Sequence record: EU863408
DNA: 64,000 bases
From: Escherichia phage JSE
Reading direction: 5' to 3' (one strand)
Under the pieces are notes generated by a model. The model ran no database searches and had not been told where the DNA came from. It saw only the letters and a list, made by a program, of their open reading frames with translations. A program made the translations under genes and the position numbers. Below are positions 2,645 to 24,222 of this stretch, piece after piece. Within the stretch, counting starts at the first letter, position 1; each line of letters starts with the position of its first letter.

Positions 2645-3370
2645 TTACTTGAGTGTGTGGAATTGGCTATGTTTAGTCTCTCGCACCTTGACAGACCCAT
2701 CGCGTTTGATATAATAGATCAGTGACTTGAGGGTGTCGTGTACATACGCGTGCGGGAAACGTTCTGGATACTTCTTCCAATCTGGAGTATTAACGATCCA
2801 GTCGAAAATCCACCACGGGCAGGAGTAGTAACCACGACCGCCACCGATCAAGCAAATGGTCGGACGGAAGCCAGTAAGATCGCAAAATGAATCAGTGTCA
2901 TGTGCTAGGGAACGATGCTCTGCTTCGTCAGAGAAAATGTTTGCTACCGGAGATTTCACTTTAACTTCCGGTGCTTCTTCAACATCTGACTTAACTTCTT
3001 CGACCACTGGTTCAACTGCTGGAGATTCTTCTTTTGTTTCTTCAATGACGATCTCAGGTTCTTTCATTGCTTCAACCAGAGACGGATCAACTTCGTCGAA
3101 TACTATTTTATCATCTGCGGTGTCTGCTGCCAGAATAAGATCGTTAATACTGGTTCCTTCTGCCGGAGTTTCTTCTTCCATTTCGGAAGCCAGTTTAGTT
3201 AATTCGGTTTCTACGAACTCGATCATGTTCTCTAGTGATAAAGTCTTTTTGACCTTAATATCAAATTGTTTTGCGTAGTCAGCTAATTCTGTTTTAGCTG
3301 TTTTCTGTGCTTCTTTGTCGTCGGACGCCGCAATAGCGCGGAGTTCTTCGAAATATTCTTTATCAAACAT
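2645..3370 (-). CDS. acidic hypothetical protein; occupies the position of T4 inh (call by synteny only)
   Basis: 241-aa ORF between hoc and uvsW; acidic central region. Confidence 0.45.
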   Translation of the reverse strand: MFDKEYFEELRAIAASDDKEAQKTAKTELADYAKQFDIKVKKTLSLENMIEFVETELTKLASEMEEETPAEGTSINDLILAADTADDKIVFDEVDPSLVEAMKEPEIVIEETKEESPAVEPVVEEVKSDVEEAPEVKVKSPVANIFSDEAEHRSLAHDTDSFCDLTGFRPTICLIGGGRGYYSCPWWIFDWIVNTPDWKKYPERFPHAYVHDTLKSLIYYIKRDGSVKVRETKHSQFHTLK

Positions 3371-3440: not shown

Positions 3441-4943
3441 ATGCAAGATATTAAAATTCACTTTCTGAACTATTCCCATGTTCAAATTGAATGTAGCGAT
3501 TCAATTTTATTAGAAATGCGAGATTATTTTAGTTTTGAAGTCGAGGGAGCGCGGTTTCAAAAACGAGTAAAATACGGAGGCTGGGATGGGCGTATTCGTC
3601 TTTTAGATTACAACGGAAAGCTGCCAATCGGCCTAACTAAAACCGTGGGAATCTTCGCTAAAAATATGGGCTATAGTGTATGGGTAGATCCTCGCTTATT
3701 CGAAAAAGAACAAGTTACAGAAGAAGAAATTACAAAATGGTGTAATGCCTTAGAATTATATTCCGGTGCTAACAGGATCACCCCGCATTGGTATCAATCA
3801 AAGGCTGTCTTTGAAGGTATCCATCATAAACGCCGTATGTTAGTTTTGCCTACGTCCGCTGGTAAATCTGCGATTGCTTGTATGTTGTCTCGCTGGTACT
3901 TAGAGAACTACGAAGGGAAAGTGCTGATCATCGTTCCTACCACGTCGCTAGTGCTGCAAATGCGTGATGACTTTGTTGATTATCGCCAGTTTCCTTATGA
4001 AGCAATTCATACTATCATGAGCGGTACTAGTAAACACGTAGGTGATCGCCTGATCGTTGTTAGTACGTGGCAATCTGCATGTAAACAACCTCGTGAGTGG
4101 TTCCAGCAATTTGGGATGGTTATTGTTGACGAATGTCACAAAGCCACTGCTAAAAACCTGCTAAACATCGTTACTGATATGGATCATTGCCAGTTTAAGA
4201 TCGGCATGACTGGTTCCCCTCGTGACGGGAAAGCTAACATGATGCAGTATGTCGGGCTTTTCGGTGATATTTCTAAGATCGTGAGTATTGACCGCCTGAT
4301 GGAAGAAGGGCAGGTGACAAAACTGAAAATTAACTGTCTTTTCCTTCGTTATACCGATGAGGAATGTAGCGCGGTTAAGGGGCGAGAATATGCGGAAGAG
4401 ATCAAGTATATTACATCTAACCCACGACGAAATAAGTTTGCTTGTAATTTGGCGCTAAAACTCGCTAAGAAGGGCGAAAACGTATTCCTGATGTTCCGCA
4501 ACACTAAGCACGGAAAACTTATGTATGACGCGTTACAGAAGGTACACGACAAGGTTTATTATATTGACGGTGGAGTTAAGACAGAAGAACGAGACGAGTT
4601 CAAAAAATTAGCGGAAGGGGAAACAGGGATCATTTGTGTTGCGTCTTATGGTGTATTCTCTACTGGTGTTTCAATTAAGAATTTGCATCATGTTATTTTC
4701 GGTCATCCAGTGAAGGAATCAACTATCGTTCGTCAGAGTATCGGTCGTGCATTGCGTAAACATGGTTCTAAGGATATTGCAACGGTCTGGGATCTTATCG
4801 ATCATTTGGCGGTTAAGACAAAGAGCAAGAATGCTAAGAAACAGTTTAGCCACCTTAATTATGCTCTTAAACATGCGCTTGAAAGAATAAAAATTTACAA
4901 CACCGATCGATTCGAATATGTCACGAAAACAATCGAGATCTAA
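3441..4943 (+). CDS. uvsW: UvsW DNA/RNA helicase
   Basis: Strong similarity to T4 UvsW along the whole length (DIKIHF.., GRIRLLDYN, LPTSAGKS, DECH, late YVGLFG and HLNY regions); ATG at 3441 with GAGTGAGG RBS (track ORF starts at GTG 3426). Confidence 0.9.
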   Translation: MQDIKIHFLNYSHVQIECSDSILLEMRDYFSFEVEGARFQKRVKYGGWDGRIRLLDYNGKLPIGLTKTVGIFAKNMGYSVWVDPRLFEKEQVTEEEITKWCNALELYSGANRITPHWYQSKAVFEGIHHKRRMLVLPTSAGKSAIACMLSRWYLENYEGKVLIIVPTTSLVLQMRDDFVDYRQFPYEAIHTIMSGTSKHVGDRLIVVSTWQSACKQPREWFQQFGMVIVDECHKATAKNLLNIVTDMDHCQFKIGMTGSPRDGKANMMQYVGLFGDISKIVSIDRLMEEGQVTKLKINCLFLRYTDEECSAVKGREYAEEIKYITSNPRRNKFACNLALKLAKKGENVFLMFRNTKHGKLMYDALQKVHDKVYYIDGGVKTEERDEFKKLAEGETGIICVASYGVFSTGVSIKNLHHVIFGHPVKESTIVRQSIGRALRKHGSKDIATVWDLIDHLAVKTKSKNAKKQFSHLNYALKHALERIKIYNTDRFEYVTKTIEI

Positions 4944-17162: not shown

Positions 17163-17191
17163 ATTATAGGGGATCGATGATCCCCTGTCAA
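17163..17191 (-). promoter_or_regulatory. PeSL-type early promoter with palindromic spacer
   Basis: TTGACA, spacer GGGGATCATCGATCCCC, TATAAT. Confidence 0.6.
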
Positions 17192-18049: not shown

Positions 18050-18765
18050 TATAGATCCTTATTTGCTTCAAATACTGCCTTTGCGAATCCTCGCGGGGTA
18101 AGTGACCTTATAGTCTTTGTTTTCGTTCCTTTCCCGCCTAGCTTAGAATGCTGTTTACTGTACCCTTTATTAATCTGCAACGGTTTCTTTTCTGGCATTA
18201 TAAAGCCTTGTCCGGACCATAAGCAAGTCTTTTTCGGGTACATATCACGGGCGGCAATATACTCAGGAAACGTAGGATGCTTATCATCTTCCGGCAAATA
18301 ACCGCCATATTCCCACGGATGGAACATATAATCAGGCTTACGCCACATGCTAGAGATAACGCTTACAGGATTCTCTATCATGTAGGGAACTCCTAGCCAT
18401 TCACCCAAATAAGCGGTTATTTTAGCTGCCCTTACATCATGAACTTGAATCAATGGTCCTTGCTCTCGTTTCTTTCGTTCAAAGTGTGCAGCGCCACTAA
18501 CAGCTAAATTGGTGCACGGTGGGAATGCAAAGATAATATCCGGTTTCCCCCATTCAAGGTCCATTGCTCTTTCCAGCCAGTTCAAATCAATCCAGGTGTT
18601 TACATAGGTAATGTTTGGATGTTCAAATCTGGTATTATACTTTTTGTATGTACCGTGGTCGGCGTCATCCGCATTAAAGCAGACTACCTTATGACCTGCT
18701 TTAGCCCATTCTAGCCCCATTATCCCCGATCCGTCAAAGTTGCAGAATATTAATTTTTGTTTCAC
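18049..18765 (-). CDS. compact C5-cytosine methyltransferase-like protein (238 aa)
   Basis: Motif I-like FCNFDGSG, motif IV-like FPPC..SG, motif VI-like ENP; too short for a canonical target-recognition domain. Confidence 0.45.
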   Translation of the reverse strand: MKQKLIFCNFDGSGIMGLEWAKAGHKVVCFNADDADHGTYKKYNTRFEHPNITYVNTWIDLNWLERAMDLEWGKPDIIFAFPPCTNLAVSGAAHFERKKREQGPLIQVHDVRAAKITAYLGEWLGVPYMIENPVSVISSMWRKPDYMFHPWEYGGYLPEDDKHPTFPEYIAARDMYPKKTCLWSGQGFIMPEKKPLQINKGYSKQHSKLGGKGTKTKTIRSLTPRGFAKAVFEANKDL

Positions 18766-19053: not shown

Positions 19054-19082
19054 ATTGTAGGGGAGTTATCCTCCCCTGTCAA
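19054..19082 (-). promoter_or_regulatory. PeSL-type early promoter
   Basis: TTGACA, palindromic spacer GGGGAGGATAACTCCCC, TACAAT. Confidence 0.55.
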
Positions 19083-19096
19083 CACTTTTTATAAAA

Positions 19097-19264
19097 TTAT
19101 TTGTTAATTTCTGGTGCGTTGCTAGGATAGTAACCTTCTTTAACTCCGAGATATTTCGCAACCATCCCTACAATCTTCTGTGCTACTACAATGTCAAATT
19201 TCAGATAATCTTCGCCGTGGGTTTCAATGATATATGCTTCACATGCTGCTTTAGTCTCGAACAT
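19097..19264 (-). CDS. small protein (55 aa), copy 1 of a duplicated gene
   Basis: MFETKAACEAYII..; about 85 percent nt identity to 22576-22743; not in the ORF track. Confidence 0.45.
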   Translation of the reverse strand: MFETKAACEAYIIETHGEDYLKFDIVVAQKIVGMVAKYLGVKEGYYPSNAPEINK

Positions 19265-19297
19265 TTTGATTCTCCTATTTCGTTTCGGTATGTGTGT

Positions 19298-19326
19298 ATT
19301 ATAGGGGATCGGTGATCCCCTGTCAA
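19298..19326 (-). promoter_or_regulatory. PeSL-type early promoter
   Basis: TTGACA, spacer GGGGATCACCGATCCCC, TATAAT. Confidence 0.6.
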
Positions 19327-19332
19327 CAACTT

Positions 19333-19644
19333 TTAGCGACGGCGACGATGTTTTTTGCGAGTTGCCTTTTTGTATGCTTTATATGCCTTTTTACCGTTTT
19401 TATATGCTTTTTTGGTATATGATTGATTTTTCTTATTGTTTTTGTATGTTTCCCGGTCAGTATTAATTTCGTTACATTCCACGAAACGGTGTCGATGTTC
19501 TTGTGGTATGATCAAACATTTATCATAATTAACCATTTCGTTTTTCGTTGTTTGTGGTTTCTTTGGTGTGTTGTTTGCACTAACAGACCCAGCAAAGAGA
19601 ATGAGTATAGCGGTCATTAACGCAAACATTGTTTTCTTAATCAT
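19333..19644 (-). CDS. secreted basic protein (103 aa)
   Basis: N-terminal signal peptide (..AGSVSA/NN); Lys/Arg-rich C-terminus. Confidence 0.5.
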   Translation of the reverse strand: MIKKTMFALMTAILILFAGSVSANNTPKKPQTTKNEMVNYDKCLIIPQEHRHRFVECNEINTDRETYKNNKKNQSYTKKAYKNGKKAYKAYKKATRKKHRRRR

Positions 19645-19702
19645 AATATTCTCCTTTAGTTTCTGCGGGAGTGTGAATATAACACTCCCTTAATATTTTG
19701 TA

Positions 19703-19984
19703 TTATTCGTGATTAGTTTCGATGTTGTGCATTTTGCACCAGTTCAGCCAATCGCCCAGATCTTGATAGTTAATGCTTTTATCTGCTGCCATCGTTTTTG
19801 TCTTGATACCCATATGTGCGTTATGAGTAAGCATTTTTACAGTGAACTCGATTTTATCGCCTTTAGCTTTAACATCAACCAGTTTGGTCCACTGGCTACC
19901 AGCACCGCGAATGTTCATACCAACGATGTTTCCGATGTATGCTTCTTTGTTTTTCAGGATTTCGGTTGCTTTGATGAATTTCAT
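19703..19984 (-). CDS. hypothetical protein (93 aa)
   Basis: ORF with RBS and upstream PeSL. Confidence 0.45.
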   Translation of the reverse strand: MKFIKATEILKNKEAYIGNIVGMNIRGAGSQWTKLVDVKAKGDKIEFTVKMLTHNAHMGIKTKTMAADKSINYQDLGDWLNWCKMHNIETNHE

Positions 19985-20017
19985 TTTTGATTCTCCAGTT
20001 CGTTTCGGTATGGGTGT

Positions 20018-20046
20018 ATTATGCTATGTTCTTACTTTGGTGTCAA
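20018..20046 (-). promoter_or_regulatory. sigma70-like early promoter
   Basis: TTGACA, 17 nt, CATAAT. Confidence 0.5.
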
Positions 20047-20055
20047 CAACTTTTT

Positions 20056-20325
20056 TTAGATATTTTCAGAAATAAATTTTAAAACTTGACGTAAATGTTT
20101 CTCATCTTTGATGGTAGCCGGAAGTTCTTCTTTTACTTCCTGTGCAAGATAGATATTTCCGTTCCAAGTGAAAGATCCGTCTTCGTTTACTCGATAGCTG
20201 AACATCCACTCGCAATCATTTTCGATTTCATATACACACAGAAGGGTGTAATCGTTAAAGCTATTGATTTCAAGGTCGAAGCCGTGACGTTTTGCAAAGT
20301 TGGTAGTGGTTTTAGTCAGTACCAT
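20056..20325 (-). CDS. hypothetical protein (89 aa)
   Basis: ORF with GGAGAATCAAA RBS. Confidence 0.45.
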   Translation of the reverse strand: MVLTKTTTNFAKRHGFDLEINSFNDYTLLCVYEIENDCEWMFSYRVNEDGSFTWNGNIYLAQEVKEELPATIKDEKHLRQVLKFISENI

Positions 20326-20364
20326 TGTTTGATTCTCCTAAGTGGTATCTCGTCTTGATGGGTG

Positions 20365-20393
20365 TATTATGCTATACACAGGATCTGGTGTCA
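20365..20393 (-). promoter_or_regulatory. sigma70-like early promoter
   Basis: TTGACA, 17 nt, CATAAT. Confidence 0.5.
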
Positions 20394-20416
20394 ATGCCTT
20401 TTTTAAAATTTTATGC

Positions 20417-20442
20417 AATAAAAAAGCCGACGCTAAGGTCGG
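20417..20442 (-). terminator. rho-independent terminator (minus strand)
   Basis: GCCGAC-loop-GTCGGC hairpin followed by T6 on the minus strand. Confidence 0.55.
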
Positions 20443-20454
20443 CTAATAAAATCA

Positions 20455-20759
20455 TTTAGACAAATAATCATTCAGTGCAATCCGGTCGGCGTATGCTGGT
20501 GTTACGTCAATCGCAATCACTTTAACGCGTGCTTTCTTGCGACCTGGGTTTTCTCGTAACCAGTGCTCATGACCGTGAACATTTTATACTGCGATGCTTC
20601 TTCGAAAGTACGGATCGGACAAGGGTAATCAGCGTAAAGGATCTCTAGGTCTTCGGTGATGTAAAAATATACATCATAATTACTGTTCTCTAGTTTAAGC
20701 AGAGACTTTCGGAACATTGGGAGATTTTCGCGGGTAAATTCAAAGATATTATCTTTCAT
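20455..20759 (-). pseudogene. HxHW-family small protein, frame broken at a T4 homopolymer (about 20581-20584)
   Basis: N-terminal 80-aa ORF; family C-terminus VHGHEHW..VKVIAIDVTPAYADRIA continues in another frame. Confidence 0.35.
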
Positions 20760-20783
20760 AGTATTATCCTCAATAGTTGGATG

Positions 20784-20806
20784 AAAAGGGGGGCTTAATG
20801 CCCCGT
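20784..20806 (-). terminator. terminator-like hairpin
   Basis: GGGGCATTAAGCCCC hairpin with a short T tract. Confidence 0.3.
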
Positions 20807-20809
20807 ATA

Positions 20810-21097
20810 TTAAAACAGTCCTTCCTGTACACCGTAGTAGAGTTCATCGCTGATAATTTCATTAATGCGACGGTGTGCATATTCCTGATTTGCGAAGTTG
20901 TCAGCAAGTTCTACTTTAGTTTCGCCATCATGAGTCCATTTAGTGATAACTTTACCATCGGCAAATTTGAAGTTGAACTCTTTAGCTACCGCATCGCGTA
21001 CCAGACGTGCAAACTTATTGTTGCGGATTGCATTGTCGGTTTCGTGTGCAGCGTGAGCGAATTTGTTAACTTTCAGAGTGATAGTAATGTATGCCAT
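20810..21097 (-). CDS. hypothetical protein (95 aa), paralog of 24231-24542
   Basis: Shared motif NAI...R.VR.A.AKEFN.K. Confidence 0.45.
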   Translation of the reverse strand: MAYITITLKVNKFAHAAHETDNAIRNNKFARLVRDAVAKEFNFKFADGKVITKWTHDGETKVELADNFANQEYAHRRINEIISDELYYGVQEGLF

Positions 21098-21143
21098 AAT
21101 TTGATTCTCCTAGTTAGAAAGTGTATCTCGTTTCGACGGGTGT

Positions 21144-21172
21144 ATTATGCTATACACCCGATCCATTGTCAA
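21144..21172 (-). promoter_or_regulatory. PeSL-type early promoter
   Basis: TTGACA, 17 nt, CATAAT; palindrome GGGTGTATAGCATAATACACCC. Confidence 0.5.
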
Positions 21173-21504
21173 CGCCTTTTTATAAAATAATTTTCGATAT
21201 CTTTATGATGTTTTTCTCGTGCTTGGTCTGCCTCGGCTGGCGATACGTTGGAAGCGATAATCTTCACTACTGTTGCACCTTTTTCGGTGTCCGACACCCA
21301 ATGATTATGGAAACCGCTATTATTAAACACTTGATAAGAAAATGATTTAATGTTAGGGAAATTATAAGTGTAATAACGTACCCTTAATTCTGAATCTACG
21401 TATAGATAGATCACCGCACCTAGATAGACCGTCTCACTCGTTCCGTCAACTAACAGTAGAGTATTTCGCAATTCTTCTAAATTGTCTTTTGTAAGAAAAA
21501 TCAT
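21169..21504 (-). CDS. HxHW-family small protein (111 aa)
   Basis: C-terminal FHNHWV..VVKIIASNVSPAEADQARE. Confidence 0.5.
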   Translation of the reverse strand: MIFLTKDNLEELRNTLLLVDGTSETVYLGAVIYLYVDSELRVRYYTYNFPNIKSFSYQVFNNSGFHNHWVSDTEKGATVVKIIASNVSPAEADQAREKHHKDIENYFIKRR

Positions 21505-21518
21505 AGTATAATCCTCAA

Positions 21519-21854
21519 TTAAACCAAATTAACTTTGGTGTTGTGGTGGTTTTCTCGTGCGTCGTCCGCTTCTTCCGGTGTCACGTTACGAGCGACGACA
21601 ATAACACTTGCTGCCTCTCCGTGATGATAGATCTCTACCCAATGGTTATGATTTGCGAATCCGTGTTTTATTGCGTAAGCGAACGGCTTAGACGTCCAGT
21701 AGTAACTATAATATCGTACATTTAGATCGCTATCAATGTACAAATATGTGCTGTCGTTTACATTGCCACTAACAACAAAAACAAGACAATTGCGAAGATC
21801 TGACAATATTTTGTCTGTCAATTTTATAATGTGACTGTTCATAATTAACACCAC
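21519..21854 (-). CDS. HxHW-family small protein (111 aa), tandem paralog
   Basis: C-terminal NHNHWV..VIVVARNVTPEEADDARE; VRYY.Y motif shared with 21169-21504. Confidence 0.5.
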   Translation of the reverse strand: MVLIMNSHIIKLTDKILSDLRNCLVFVVSGNVNDSTYLYIDSDLNVRYYSYYWTSKPFAYAIKHGFANHNHWVEIYHHGEAASVIVVARNVTPEEADDARENHHNTKVNLV

Positions 21855-22060
21855 TCAAGAGTTTTTGAAAACACATCTATCCATTGTTGAGTATATGCGG
21901 TTTCTTTCCATGACACAATACCAGTCGAATAATGGTTTTTGTTTCCAGAAAAGGACGGGCATTTTGATGCATCTTCCATCATCTTTTCGGCGAACTCTGG
22001 TTCGTATACCCGCAGAATCTGTTGATATGCTTTGTATTCTTTAAATTTGCTCATAATCAT
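21845..22060 (-). CDS. hypothetical protein (71 aa)
   Basis: ORF only. Confidence 0.35.
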   Translation of the reverse strand: MIMSKFKEYKAYQQILRVYEPEFAEKMMEDASKCPSFSGNKNHYSTGIVSWKETAYTQQWIDVFSKTLEWC

Positions 22061-22319
22061 TCACTACCTTATCAGCTTCTTTTGTTGTTTTTACATCAAC
22101 TGCGATAACCCGTAAAGGTTCGTCATGGTTCCACCAATGATCGTGAATATCGGCTTGTGATTTATCACCAAAGGAATCACGAATATCATTTTTACATTTA
22201 TAGCTAATGTGACCGTCATAGTCAACATAAAGGTAATTATCGAAAATCGGCGTTTTTAAGATCATACCGAAAAATCTTTCTTTGTGTGTCTTATCCAGTG
22301 TTGCAGTAATTCGCATCAT
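22041..22319 (-). CDS. HxHW-family small protein (92 aa)
   Basis: C-terminal IHDHWW..VIAVDVKTTKEAD. Confidence 0.45.
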   Translation of the reverse strand: MMRITATLDKTHKERFFGMILKTPIFDNYLYVDYDGHISYKCKNDIRDSFGDKSQADIHDHWWNHDEPLRVIAVDVKTTKEADKVVNDYEQI

Positions 22320-22331
22320 AATATATTCCTC

Positions 22332-22511
22332 TTAGAAAGGGATGGTCATTTCTTGAGCTTGTACATTCTCGTTAGGATTAAACTTCATCCAACCGATATT
22401 GTCTACCAGCATATGCACATTTTTATCATATCCTACGTGGGTAGTCAATACTGTATGTGCTTTACCTTCAACGATGATTTCCATGTACTTCTGAACTTCG
22501 ATAGCTTTCAT
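22332..22511 (-). CDS. small hypothetical protein (59 aa)
   Basis: Hand-translated ORF MKAIEVQKYMEII..; GGAGAATCAAA RBS. Confidence 0.35.
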   Translation of the reverse strand: MKAIEVQKYMEIIVEGKAHTVLTTHVGYDKNVHMLVDNIGWMKFNPNENVQAQEMTIPF

Positions 22512-22537
22512 TTTGATTCTCCGTTTGTTGTCTTGAT

Positions 22538-22572
22538 GGGAGTATCTTACTACTCCCTTTAATCATTGTCAA
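22538..22572 (-). promoter_or_regulatory. PeSL-type early promoter
   Basis: TTGACA, 17 nt, TAAGAT within palindrome GGGAGTAGTAAGATACTCCC. Confidence 0.5.
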
Positions 22573-22575
22573 CTA

Positions 22576-22743
22576 TTATTTGTTAATTTCCGGTGCGTTG
22601 CTTGGATAGTAGCCTTCTTTAACACCCAGATATTTTGCAACCATTCCGGTGATCTTCTGTGCTACTACGATATCGAATTTCAGGTAGTCTTCACCGTGGT
22701 TTGCTACAATGTATGCTTCGCATTCTGCTTTAGTCTGGAACAT
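22576..22743 (-). CDS. small protein (55 aa), copy 2 of the duplicated gene
   Basis: MFQTKAECEAYIV..; start at the ATG with GGAGAATCAAA RBS rather than the longer track ORF. Confidence 0.45.
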   Translation of the reverse strand: MFQTKAECEAYIVANHGEDYLKFDIVVAQKITGMVAKYLGVKEGYYPSNAPEINK

Positions 22744-22777
22744 TTTTGATTCTCCTATATCTCGTTGGTATGTGTGC

Positions 22778-22806
22778 ATTATAGGGGATCACCGATCCCC
22801 TGTCAA
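22778..22806 (-). promoter_or_regulatory. PeSL-type early promoter
   Basis: TTGACA, spacer GGGGATCGGTGATCCCC, TATAAT. Confidence 0.6.
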
Positions 22807-22811
22807 CAACT

Positions 22812-23106
22812 TTATAATGCTTTATATGCGTATTTCATAAATTTGTCTGCCACTTCATTGGCATGTTCAGATTCTACGCCTGATTCGAGAACAATAGCTA
22901 GGTCGGTTTCGTCATTCCCGCCGTACCAATGATTTGATGTTCGATTTTTTTCAATTGGAAATTGGTCACTTTTATCTGTGCGACAAAATACATCTAAATG
23001 CTCATCGATGTAAAAGATCCAATCTTCATAAAGAATAACGGGTATTAGCAAGATTTTTATTGCCTTCAACGAAAGGTTCGGCTACAAACAAATTAGTATG
23101 TTCCAT
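22812..23106 (-). pseudogene. HxHW-family small protein, frame broken at a T5 homopolymer (23054-23058)
   Basis: ATG at 23104-23106 with GAGGAAA RBS opens a 26-codon frame that joins the track ORF (SNHWYGG..AIVLESGV) only after a 1-nt correction. Confidence 0.3.
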
Positions 23107-23370: not shown

Positions 23371-23691
23371 TTACACAAAATGGCGTGTCAATGCTTCTTT
23401 TGCGGTTCCGCTAAGACTTTCGATCTCGCCTGGCATAACATCAACCGCCAGAACTTCTACAACATCCTCGGACCCTAACCAGTGAGTATGGCCTTTGTAG
23501 AACTTGATAACCAGACTACCTTCCTCGTCCCATTTAACGCTATCGCTAGCCCACCACACATCACCGTCGATAAAGTTGATGTAAAGCACACTACGCCACA
23601 TTGAATTAATTACTTTCAATACTGCGCCTTTCATCTCTTCCACGGTATGGTCTTCCATTTTGAAGACCTCACCTACCTGAACTTTTGCCAT
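23371..23691 (-). CDS. HxHW-family small protein (106 aa from MAKVQV)
   Basis: C-terminal KGHTHW..VEVLAVDVMPGEIE; start placed 2 nt after the upstream stop. Confidence 0.45.
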   Translation of the reverse strand: MAKVQVGEVFKMEDHTVEEMKGAVLKVINSMWRSVLYINFIDGDVWWASDSVKWDEEGSLVIKFYKGHTHWLGSEDVVEVLAVDVMPGEIESLSGTAKEALTRHFV

Positions 23692-23692
23692 G

Positions 23693-23959
23693 TTACATGC
23701 TCCGAATATGTTTAGCTGCATCTTCCAGTTCGTCGATAGTGACACTGTGTGCCAGTAAGTGTACTGGTTGTGGTTCTTCACCTTCCATAGTATTGATCAG
23801 ATGACCGTTTCCTGGGTGGAATGTATCGTTGCCGTTCCAAATAGCATACACATCATCTTCTGTTACGTAGATAATAAGTCCAATCGGTGATTCTGGTAAT
23901 TGAAAAATTTTACCCACTGCATCTTTGCGATTGTTTACGATATCTTTTACTGTCTTCAT
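23693..23959 (-). CDS. hypothetical protein (88 aa), possible divergent family member
   Basis: ORF; weak resemblance (GNGHLI..VHLLAHSVTIDELEDA). Confidence 0.4.
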   Translation of the reverse strand: MKTVKDIVNNRKDAVGKIFQLPESPIGLIIYVTEDDVYAIWNGNDTFHPGNGHLINTMEGEEPQPVHLLAHSVTIDELEDAAKHIRSM

Positions 23960-24192: not shown

Positions 24193-24222
24193 ATTATAGG
24201 GGAGTTTAACCTCCCCTGTCAA
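24193..24222 (-). promoter_or_regulatory. PeSL-type early promoter
   Basis: TTGACA, spacer GGGGAGGTTAAACTCCCC, TATAAT. Confidence 0.55.

Follow-up and report, generated by a model that had tools for sequence, protein, structure and literature searches.

Among the closest counterparts of the locus analysed here are the PeSL + ORFan cassettes described for T4-type phages (Arbiol et al. 2010, PMC2839356; Comeau et al. 2014, PMC4122927), with which it shares a consensus sigma-70 promoter, a GGGG...CCCC stem-loop, a small ORFan and a position in a hyperplastic region. In phages RB49 and phi1, PeSL206/205 acts as a strong promoter (~13,000 Miller units) and the stem-loop of PeSL211/210 has terminator activity, with the mobility of the cassettes being ascribed to general homologous recombination at the promoter/terminator repeats (PMC2839356). 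Here, we describe a pair of such cassettes that carry versions of the same gene.

The window (the whole 64-kb stretch of DNA that was analysed, which is from an RB49-like, T4-type coliphage of the genus Krischvirus) contains two genes, each of 55 codons plus a stop, at 19097-19264 (copy A) and 22576-22743 (copy B), both on the minus strand. Pairwise comparison gives 142/168 identical nucleotides (84.5%) and 49/55 identical residues (89%), which bears out the sequence-only reading of a near-identical 55-residue pair at about 85% nucleotide identity, a reading that left the strand unstated. The copies differ at 26 nucleotides, 19 of them in third codon positions, such that 17 of the differing codons are synonymous and 6 nonsynonymous. 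With a BLASTP E-value of 6.6e-35 they form by far the closest paralogue pair in the window; no third copy was detected there, nor in any of 50,697 phage records searched by tblastn (two places per record at most). Copy A is the orthologue of RB49p191 (NP_891762) and phi1 ORF191, and copy B of RB49p205 (NP_891776) and phi1 ORF205, hypothetical proteins encoded at the same sites between alt and gene 30 and behind the same PeSLs; identity to these proteins is 98-100% for copy A and 100% for copy B. A 67-residue reading of copy B from the ATG at 22779 was rejected in favour of the start at 22743, as the former sits within the -10 box (TATAATG) and is thus an artefact of ORF-calling.

The claim that each gene lies behind its own PeSL promoter also held. 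Perfect TTGACA-N17-TATAAT matches (12/12) precede the two copies, at 19326-19298 and 22806-22778, and are the only ones between 18900 and 23100; in both, the 17-nt spacer forms a GC-rich hairpin that has an 8-bp stem and a loop of 3 nt (centroid energies of -12.8 kcal/mol for A and -13.5 kcal/mol for B; z of -3.4 and -2.2), followed by AGGAG and then ATG. PeSL_A (19265-19334, minus strand) is made up of the -35 box TTGACA (19326-19321), the stem-loop/spacer GGGGATCACCGATCCCC (19320-19304), the -10 box TATAAT (19303-19298), an A-type 5'UTR and the Shine-Dalgarno sequence AGGAG (19276-19272). PeSL_B (22744-22814, minus strand), the orthologue of PeSL206/205, has its -35 box at 22806-22801, the stem-loop GGGGATCGGTGATCCCC at 22800-22784, its -10 box at 22783-22778, a B-type 5'UTR (ACCAACGAGATAT) and a Shine-Dalgarno sequence at 22756-22752. 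On the minus strand, the stem-loop of PeSL_A (19304-19320) is the exact reverse complement of that of PeSL_B (22784-22800), and orthologous PeSL_B loops read ACC in Phi1, MIZ4, PTE-Eco09 and JK32 and GGT in RB49, G37-3, ECD7 and Brandy; either inversion of the hairpin-loop or a swap of PeSL halves could account for the difference in orientation.

Downstream, the similarity between A and B ends at the stop codon (TAA+T). Directly beyond this point copy A meets a PeSL of the GGGGAGG...CTCCCC type (19054-19096, minus strand; TTGACA-GGGGAGGATAACTCCCC-TACAAT) that heads the ORF190 homologue, and copy B an unrelated, second-type PeSL (22544-22575, minus strand; TTGACA...GGGAGTAGTAAGATACTCCC, with the -10 box in the loop) that heads the ORF204 homologue. 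A segmental duplication that took in the neighbours was rejected, as the genes flanking A and B are unrelated, with no similarity between them detected by sequence comparison or by BLASTP within the window. Upstream, ~70 nt of the two PeSLs can be aligned at 86%, and this stretch was likewise rejected as a duplication boundary: PeSL_A is nearer to an unrelated PeSL at 17191 (94%) and to another at 24222 (88%) than it is to PeSL_B, so likeness between PeSLs is generic. The two halves of the PeSL behave differently among relatives, in that the -10-to-SD half travels with its gene (ACCGAAACGAAAT in all A copies and the B-type UTR in all B copies, recombinants excepted) and the -35/stem-loop half changes according to which cassette lies upstream. 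In the window, the 5' half of PeSL_A is unlike that of RB49, phi1 and other phages, and the cassette upstream has been replaced, this slot holding a 103-residue ORFan cassette here and ORF192 in RB49, and being empty in phi1; it is the ORF192 slot that Arbiol et al. 2010 (PMC2839356) used as an example.

Given that homology ends at the stop codon, that the neighbours are unrelated and that the -10-to-SD half moves with the gene, the unit of paralogy is a single cassette, the exact 5' boundary of which cannot be fixed. The proposal of a cassette-level duplication in the hyperplastic region is thereby upheld as regards its level: the copy-specific homology does amount to one cassette within the alt-to-gene 30 region, but the shared PeSL is no boundary marker, and alignment of the flanks, which had been suggested as a means of defining the duplication, places the 3' end only. 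Judged by sequence, both copies are PeSL + ORFan cassettes by virtue of a near-consensus promoter, a GC-rich stem-loop, a location in the alt-gene 30 hyperplastic region, and presence or absence in relatives that is marked by chimeric PeSLs.

Both proteins match PHROG 8009 over their full length (residues 1-55 of 55; E = 6.8e-38 for A and 1.2e-38 for B), a family that has no annotation, and searches of Pfam and NCBIfam and a profile search of the PDB returned no match. The AlphaFold model, built on a 10-sequence alignment, confidently predicts a small alpha/beta fold (pLDDT of 91.9), with helices at residues 5-16, 18-22 and 33-39 and strands at 28-31 and 44-47. E3Q, A7E and E14A are replacements fixed between A and B, and their helical periodicity (i, i+4, i+11) suggests that residues 3, 7 and 14 would share one face of helix 1. 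Two word-indexed searches for further family members gave 5 and 6 matches and an exhaustive profile search 12, in which the short matches are unannotated proteins of 53-63 residues and the long ones, matching in multiple stretches, are probably spurious; a scan of IMG/VR yielded two loci only. More distant homologues (70-72% amino acid identity) occur in the siphoviruses swi2 (Swiduovirus) and SeSz-2 (Skatevirus), where the 51-residue protein and one more small ORF make up a two-gene unit (3001-3358 of the extracted loci). This unit lies on the opposite strand to all of its neighbours, adjoins the large terminase gene and has its own sigma-70-like promoter, a moron-like arrangement which points to horizontal transfer of the gene between the myo- and siphoviruses of enterobacteria. 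In the present phage, expression is presumably early; with a strong early promoter and a moron-like distribution in mind, we would guess, and hold only weakly, that the protein is a small host-directed binder, serving takeover or anti-defence, that is made right after infection.

Drawing these findings together, we favour a model (with a probability of roughly 0.72) in which A and B, both versions of a small early accessory gene, are paralogues of long standing. One single-gene PeSL cassette would have been copied to a second PeSL site in the Krischvirus stem lineage, before the sequenced members of the genus radiated, the likeliest route being homologous recombination between PeSLs (Arbiol et al. 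2010), either through excision of a mini-circle and its reinsertion or through unequal exchange between genome copies. Each copy would constitute an independent transcription unit, its PeSL joining a consensus promoter for sigma-70 to a stem-loop at which transcription of the cassette upstream also ends; strong purifying selection would then have preserved both copies, with a few fixed replacements, whilst they continued to recombine with each other. The involvement of PeSLs, and which of the two copies was the source, we infer from sequence. The siphovirus homologues agree with A at E3 and E14/T15 and with B at E7, and both copies are thus derived. A metagenomic contig from Logan (SRR5584643; 4723-5165 of the extracted locus) carries a single 54-residue homologue (83% identity to A) that comes immediately after an ORF194-like gene and overlaps the end of that gene through GTGATG, with no PeSL in between; this matches the synteny on the A side and hints that the A side may be the ancestral position. 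The same contig has genes for a PHP-domain protein and a 2-hydroxyacid dehydrogenase on the other strand. Among the nearest straboviruses outside Krischvirus, tblastn found no match to the family.

The alternative that survives best, though we consider it rather unlikely, is that the second copy, instead of being produced by duplication within one genome, was captured as a homeologous allele from a diverged co-infecting phage, with a PeSL mini-circle as one conceivable carrier, and integrated at another PeSL. The 84.5% identity between A and B does fall between the core identity seen within the genus (94-97%) and that to the next genera (60-80%), PeSL cassettes have been proposed as vehicles of horizontal transfer (PMC2839356), and diverged alleles do occur outside Krischvirus, namely P0003, at 78-83% amino acid identity, and the siphovirus homologues described above. 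Set against this, the closest relative of A is B, and vice versa, among all matches in searches of 5.8 billion and 1.8 billion proteins, there is no phage whose sole copy is B-type and located at an A-type locus, and divergence combined with conversion fits the data equally well.

How old, then, is the pair? The sequence-only reading took the duplication to be recent, an idea that has in its favour the 89% amino acid identity and the alike upstream PeSLs; as an event peculiar to the lineage of this phage, however, it would be highly improbable. When copy number in relatives was checked for a second copy specific to one lineage, tblastn of the 50,697 phage records found the family in 57 Krischvirus records and both copies in 50 of these, RB49 and phi1 included, with the two genes annotated at conserved positions in RB49, phi1, G37-3, GEC-3S, E26, PTE-Eco09 and FL20; the remaining seven records have one copy, encoding an A-type protein in Cognac and FL04 and a B-type protein in MIZ4, MIZ5, UPWr_E1, Brandy and JK32. 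A comparison of diagnostic sites in 25 copies extracted from 16 genomes separates A and B into two clades that are 26 diagnostic nucleotide sites apart, with mean differences of 3.6-3.9 nt (~2%) within a clade and 23.9 nt (~14%) between clades. For the pair in the window, Nei-Gojobori counts give 19 synonymous differences over 33.7 sites (pS 0.56, dS ~1.05) and 7 nonsynonymous differences over 131 sites (dN 0.055), so that synonymous sites are near saturation, and the dN/dS of 0.05 indicates that both copies are under strong purifying selection. In addition, the similarity of the PeSLs is of the generic kind noted above. The genus-wide occurrence, the two-clade split and the dS of ~1.05 together place the duplication before the sequenced Krischvirus phages diverged. 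In FL20, copy A (4601-4768 of its extracted locus) is cut short by a stop at codon 45 and annotated as a CDS of 135 nt; either the copy has become a pseudogene or the sequence contains an error. The notion that the likeness of A and B is due to chance or low complexity, or that one of the ORFs is no gene, has nothing but small ORF size to commend it and can be dismissed, the similarity running over the full length rather than being restricted to short low-complexity stretches, with the BLASTP score of the top paralogue pair in 64 kb, the full-length PHROG 8009 matches at ~1e-38, the low dN/dS, the perfect promoter and Shine-Dalgarno sequence before each copy and the pLDDT of the model all standing against it.

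Several genomes indicate that the two paralogues have gone on exchanging sequence. Copy B of both Brandy and PTE-Eco09 has six consecutive A-type diagnostic sites at nt 51-75, where the chance of six discordant sites out of 26 being contiguous is P ~9e-5. Conversely, copy A of PTE-Eco09 has B-type states from the -10 box as far as nt 24, UTR included, that of G37-3 is B-type at four contiguous sites (nt 108-120), and that of E26 is B-type at its 3' end; the last two diagnostic sites are A-type in copy B of MIZ4, as is the last one in copy B of GEC-3S and RB49. Larger rearrangements are seen in phages with one copy. The single gene of Cognac and FL04 is flanked by 700 nt that are collinear with the upstream side of B and by 348-500 nt that are collinear with the downstream side of A, the whole block between the paralogues having been lost to leave a B-upstream/A-downstream hybrid; the crossover falls between the B-type UTR and codon 3 in Cognac and farther upstream, in the -35/stem region, in FL04, and as these points differ the two deletions are independent. 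JK32 is without cassette A only, its ORF193|ORF190 junction being a chimeric PeSL with a crossover between the -10 box and the Shine-Dalgarno sequence, the same zone in which sequenced PeSL mini-circles crossed over (Arbiol et al. 2010, PMC2839356); one of those mini-circles bore ORFs 191-194 and thus the orthologue of copy A. In MIZ4, copy A has been lost along with ORF186-190, with a chimeric PeSL at the ORF193|ORF185 junction. Indels with chimeric PeSLs at their ends, in which the crossover lies between the -10 box and the ATG, are as published for PeSL cassettes in general. The four one-copy genomes inspected (Cognac, FL04, JK32 and MIZ4) therefore look like secondary losses, and the short conversion tracts and deletion junctions in several phages indicate that A and B still recombine. 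We envisage that A and B, being direct repeats of 168 bp that lie 3.3 kb from each other in a T4-type genome, itself highly recombinogenic, would be prone to continued recombination, giving rise to short gene-conversion tracts and to the occasional loss of the intervening block.

That block (19265-22575, minus strand; 3.3 kb) holds ~10 small ORFs, these being the homologues of RB49 ORF193-204 and the 103-residue ORFan, and is the one deleted in Cognac and FL04. A more adventurous, and to our minds doubtful, idea is that the pair could act as ~240-bp homology arms (gene plus PeSL) which make the block, with its ~10-13 accessory genes, a recurrently excisable and re-insertable 'super-cassette', while divergence along a single helix face may have enabled the two proteins to bind different variants of a host target. 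Were this true, phage populations could toggle a whole set of early genes.

The surroundings of the pair show the mosaic pattern of the hyperplastic region, with ~95% identity to relatives at just 50-80% coverage; a core segment of the window shares 94-97% identity with Krischvirus, against only 60-80% with the Serratia, Klebsiella, Cronobacter and Raoultella phages that make up the next genera. ORF189.1 is missing between ORF190 and the methyltransferase gene (18749-18765), as it is in E26, and in PTE-Eco09 (934-1484 of the extracted locus) copy B comes directly behind ORF210, with ORF206-209 missing. The 103-residue ORF (19333-19644, minus strand) encodes a signal peptide-like N-terminus and a Lys/Arg-rich C-terminus and has no tblastn match in the 50,697 phage records; the hairpin GGGAGTG-TTATATT-CACTCCC (19667-19689) that precedes it has a -10-like loop and no good -35 box. 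After A and B, the next-best paralogue pair in the window is a tandem of 111-residue proteins (21169-21504 and 21519-21854, both minus strand; 43% identical, E of 3e-20). By eye, an H-x-H-W motif seems to be common to these and to the ORFs at 22041-22319, 22812-23069 and 23371-23781, which together may represent a second, older gene family that has expanded in the same hyperplastic region.

Taken as a whole, the duplication is real, old and near genus-wide, and is an ordinary product of a published cassette-shuffling system. The genes, their positions and the PeSL system were already known, with the genes present in the reference genomes of RB49 and phi1 before the 2010 PeSL study, and the finding carries little weight alone: the orthologue of copy B's PeSL has been tested experimentally and the orthologue of copy A itself was in a sequenced mini-circle (PMC2839356). 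The words 'paralog', 'gene conversion' and 'duplicat' (in the gene sense), and any reference to 191/205 paralogy, are absent from the texts of PMC2839356 and PMC4122927; a literature search by the locus tags and accessions of the pair found no paper, and one for Krischvirus with duplication nothing relevant. What is added here is support for the published model from natural populations, in the form of the hybrid deletions of Cognac and FL04, the precise excision in JK32 and the conversion tracts. Furthermore, the strong purifying selection that acts on two 55-residue copies makes the family a reasonable, if not urgent, candidate for functional study.

The comparison with known systems can be drawn more widely. 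Integron gene cassettes and lambdoid 'morons' are likewise accessory units of one gene each, whose insertion or excision leaves the neighbouring genes undisturbed, and the siphovirus homologues of swi2 and SeSz-2 do sit in a moron-like unit. Unlike integron cassettes, PeSL cassettes have no known integrase or attC-type site, and each has a promoter of its own. The present locus departs from the PeSL system as published in one respect: here the repeated coding sequence too, beyond the PeSL, is a substrate for recombination. The hybrid deletions, the chimeric PeSL of JK32 and the conversion tracts together show that repeats of coding sequence, as well as PeSLs, drive rearrangement in the hyperplastic regions of T4-type phages.
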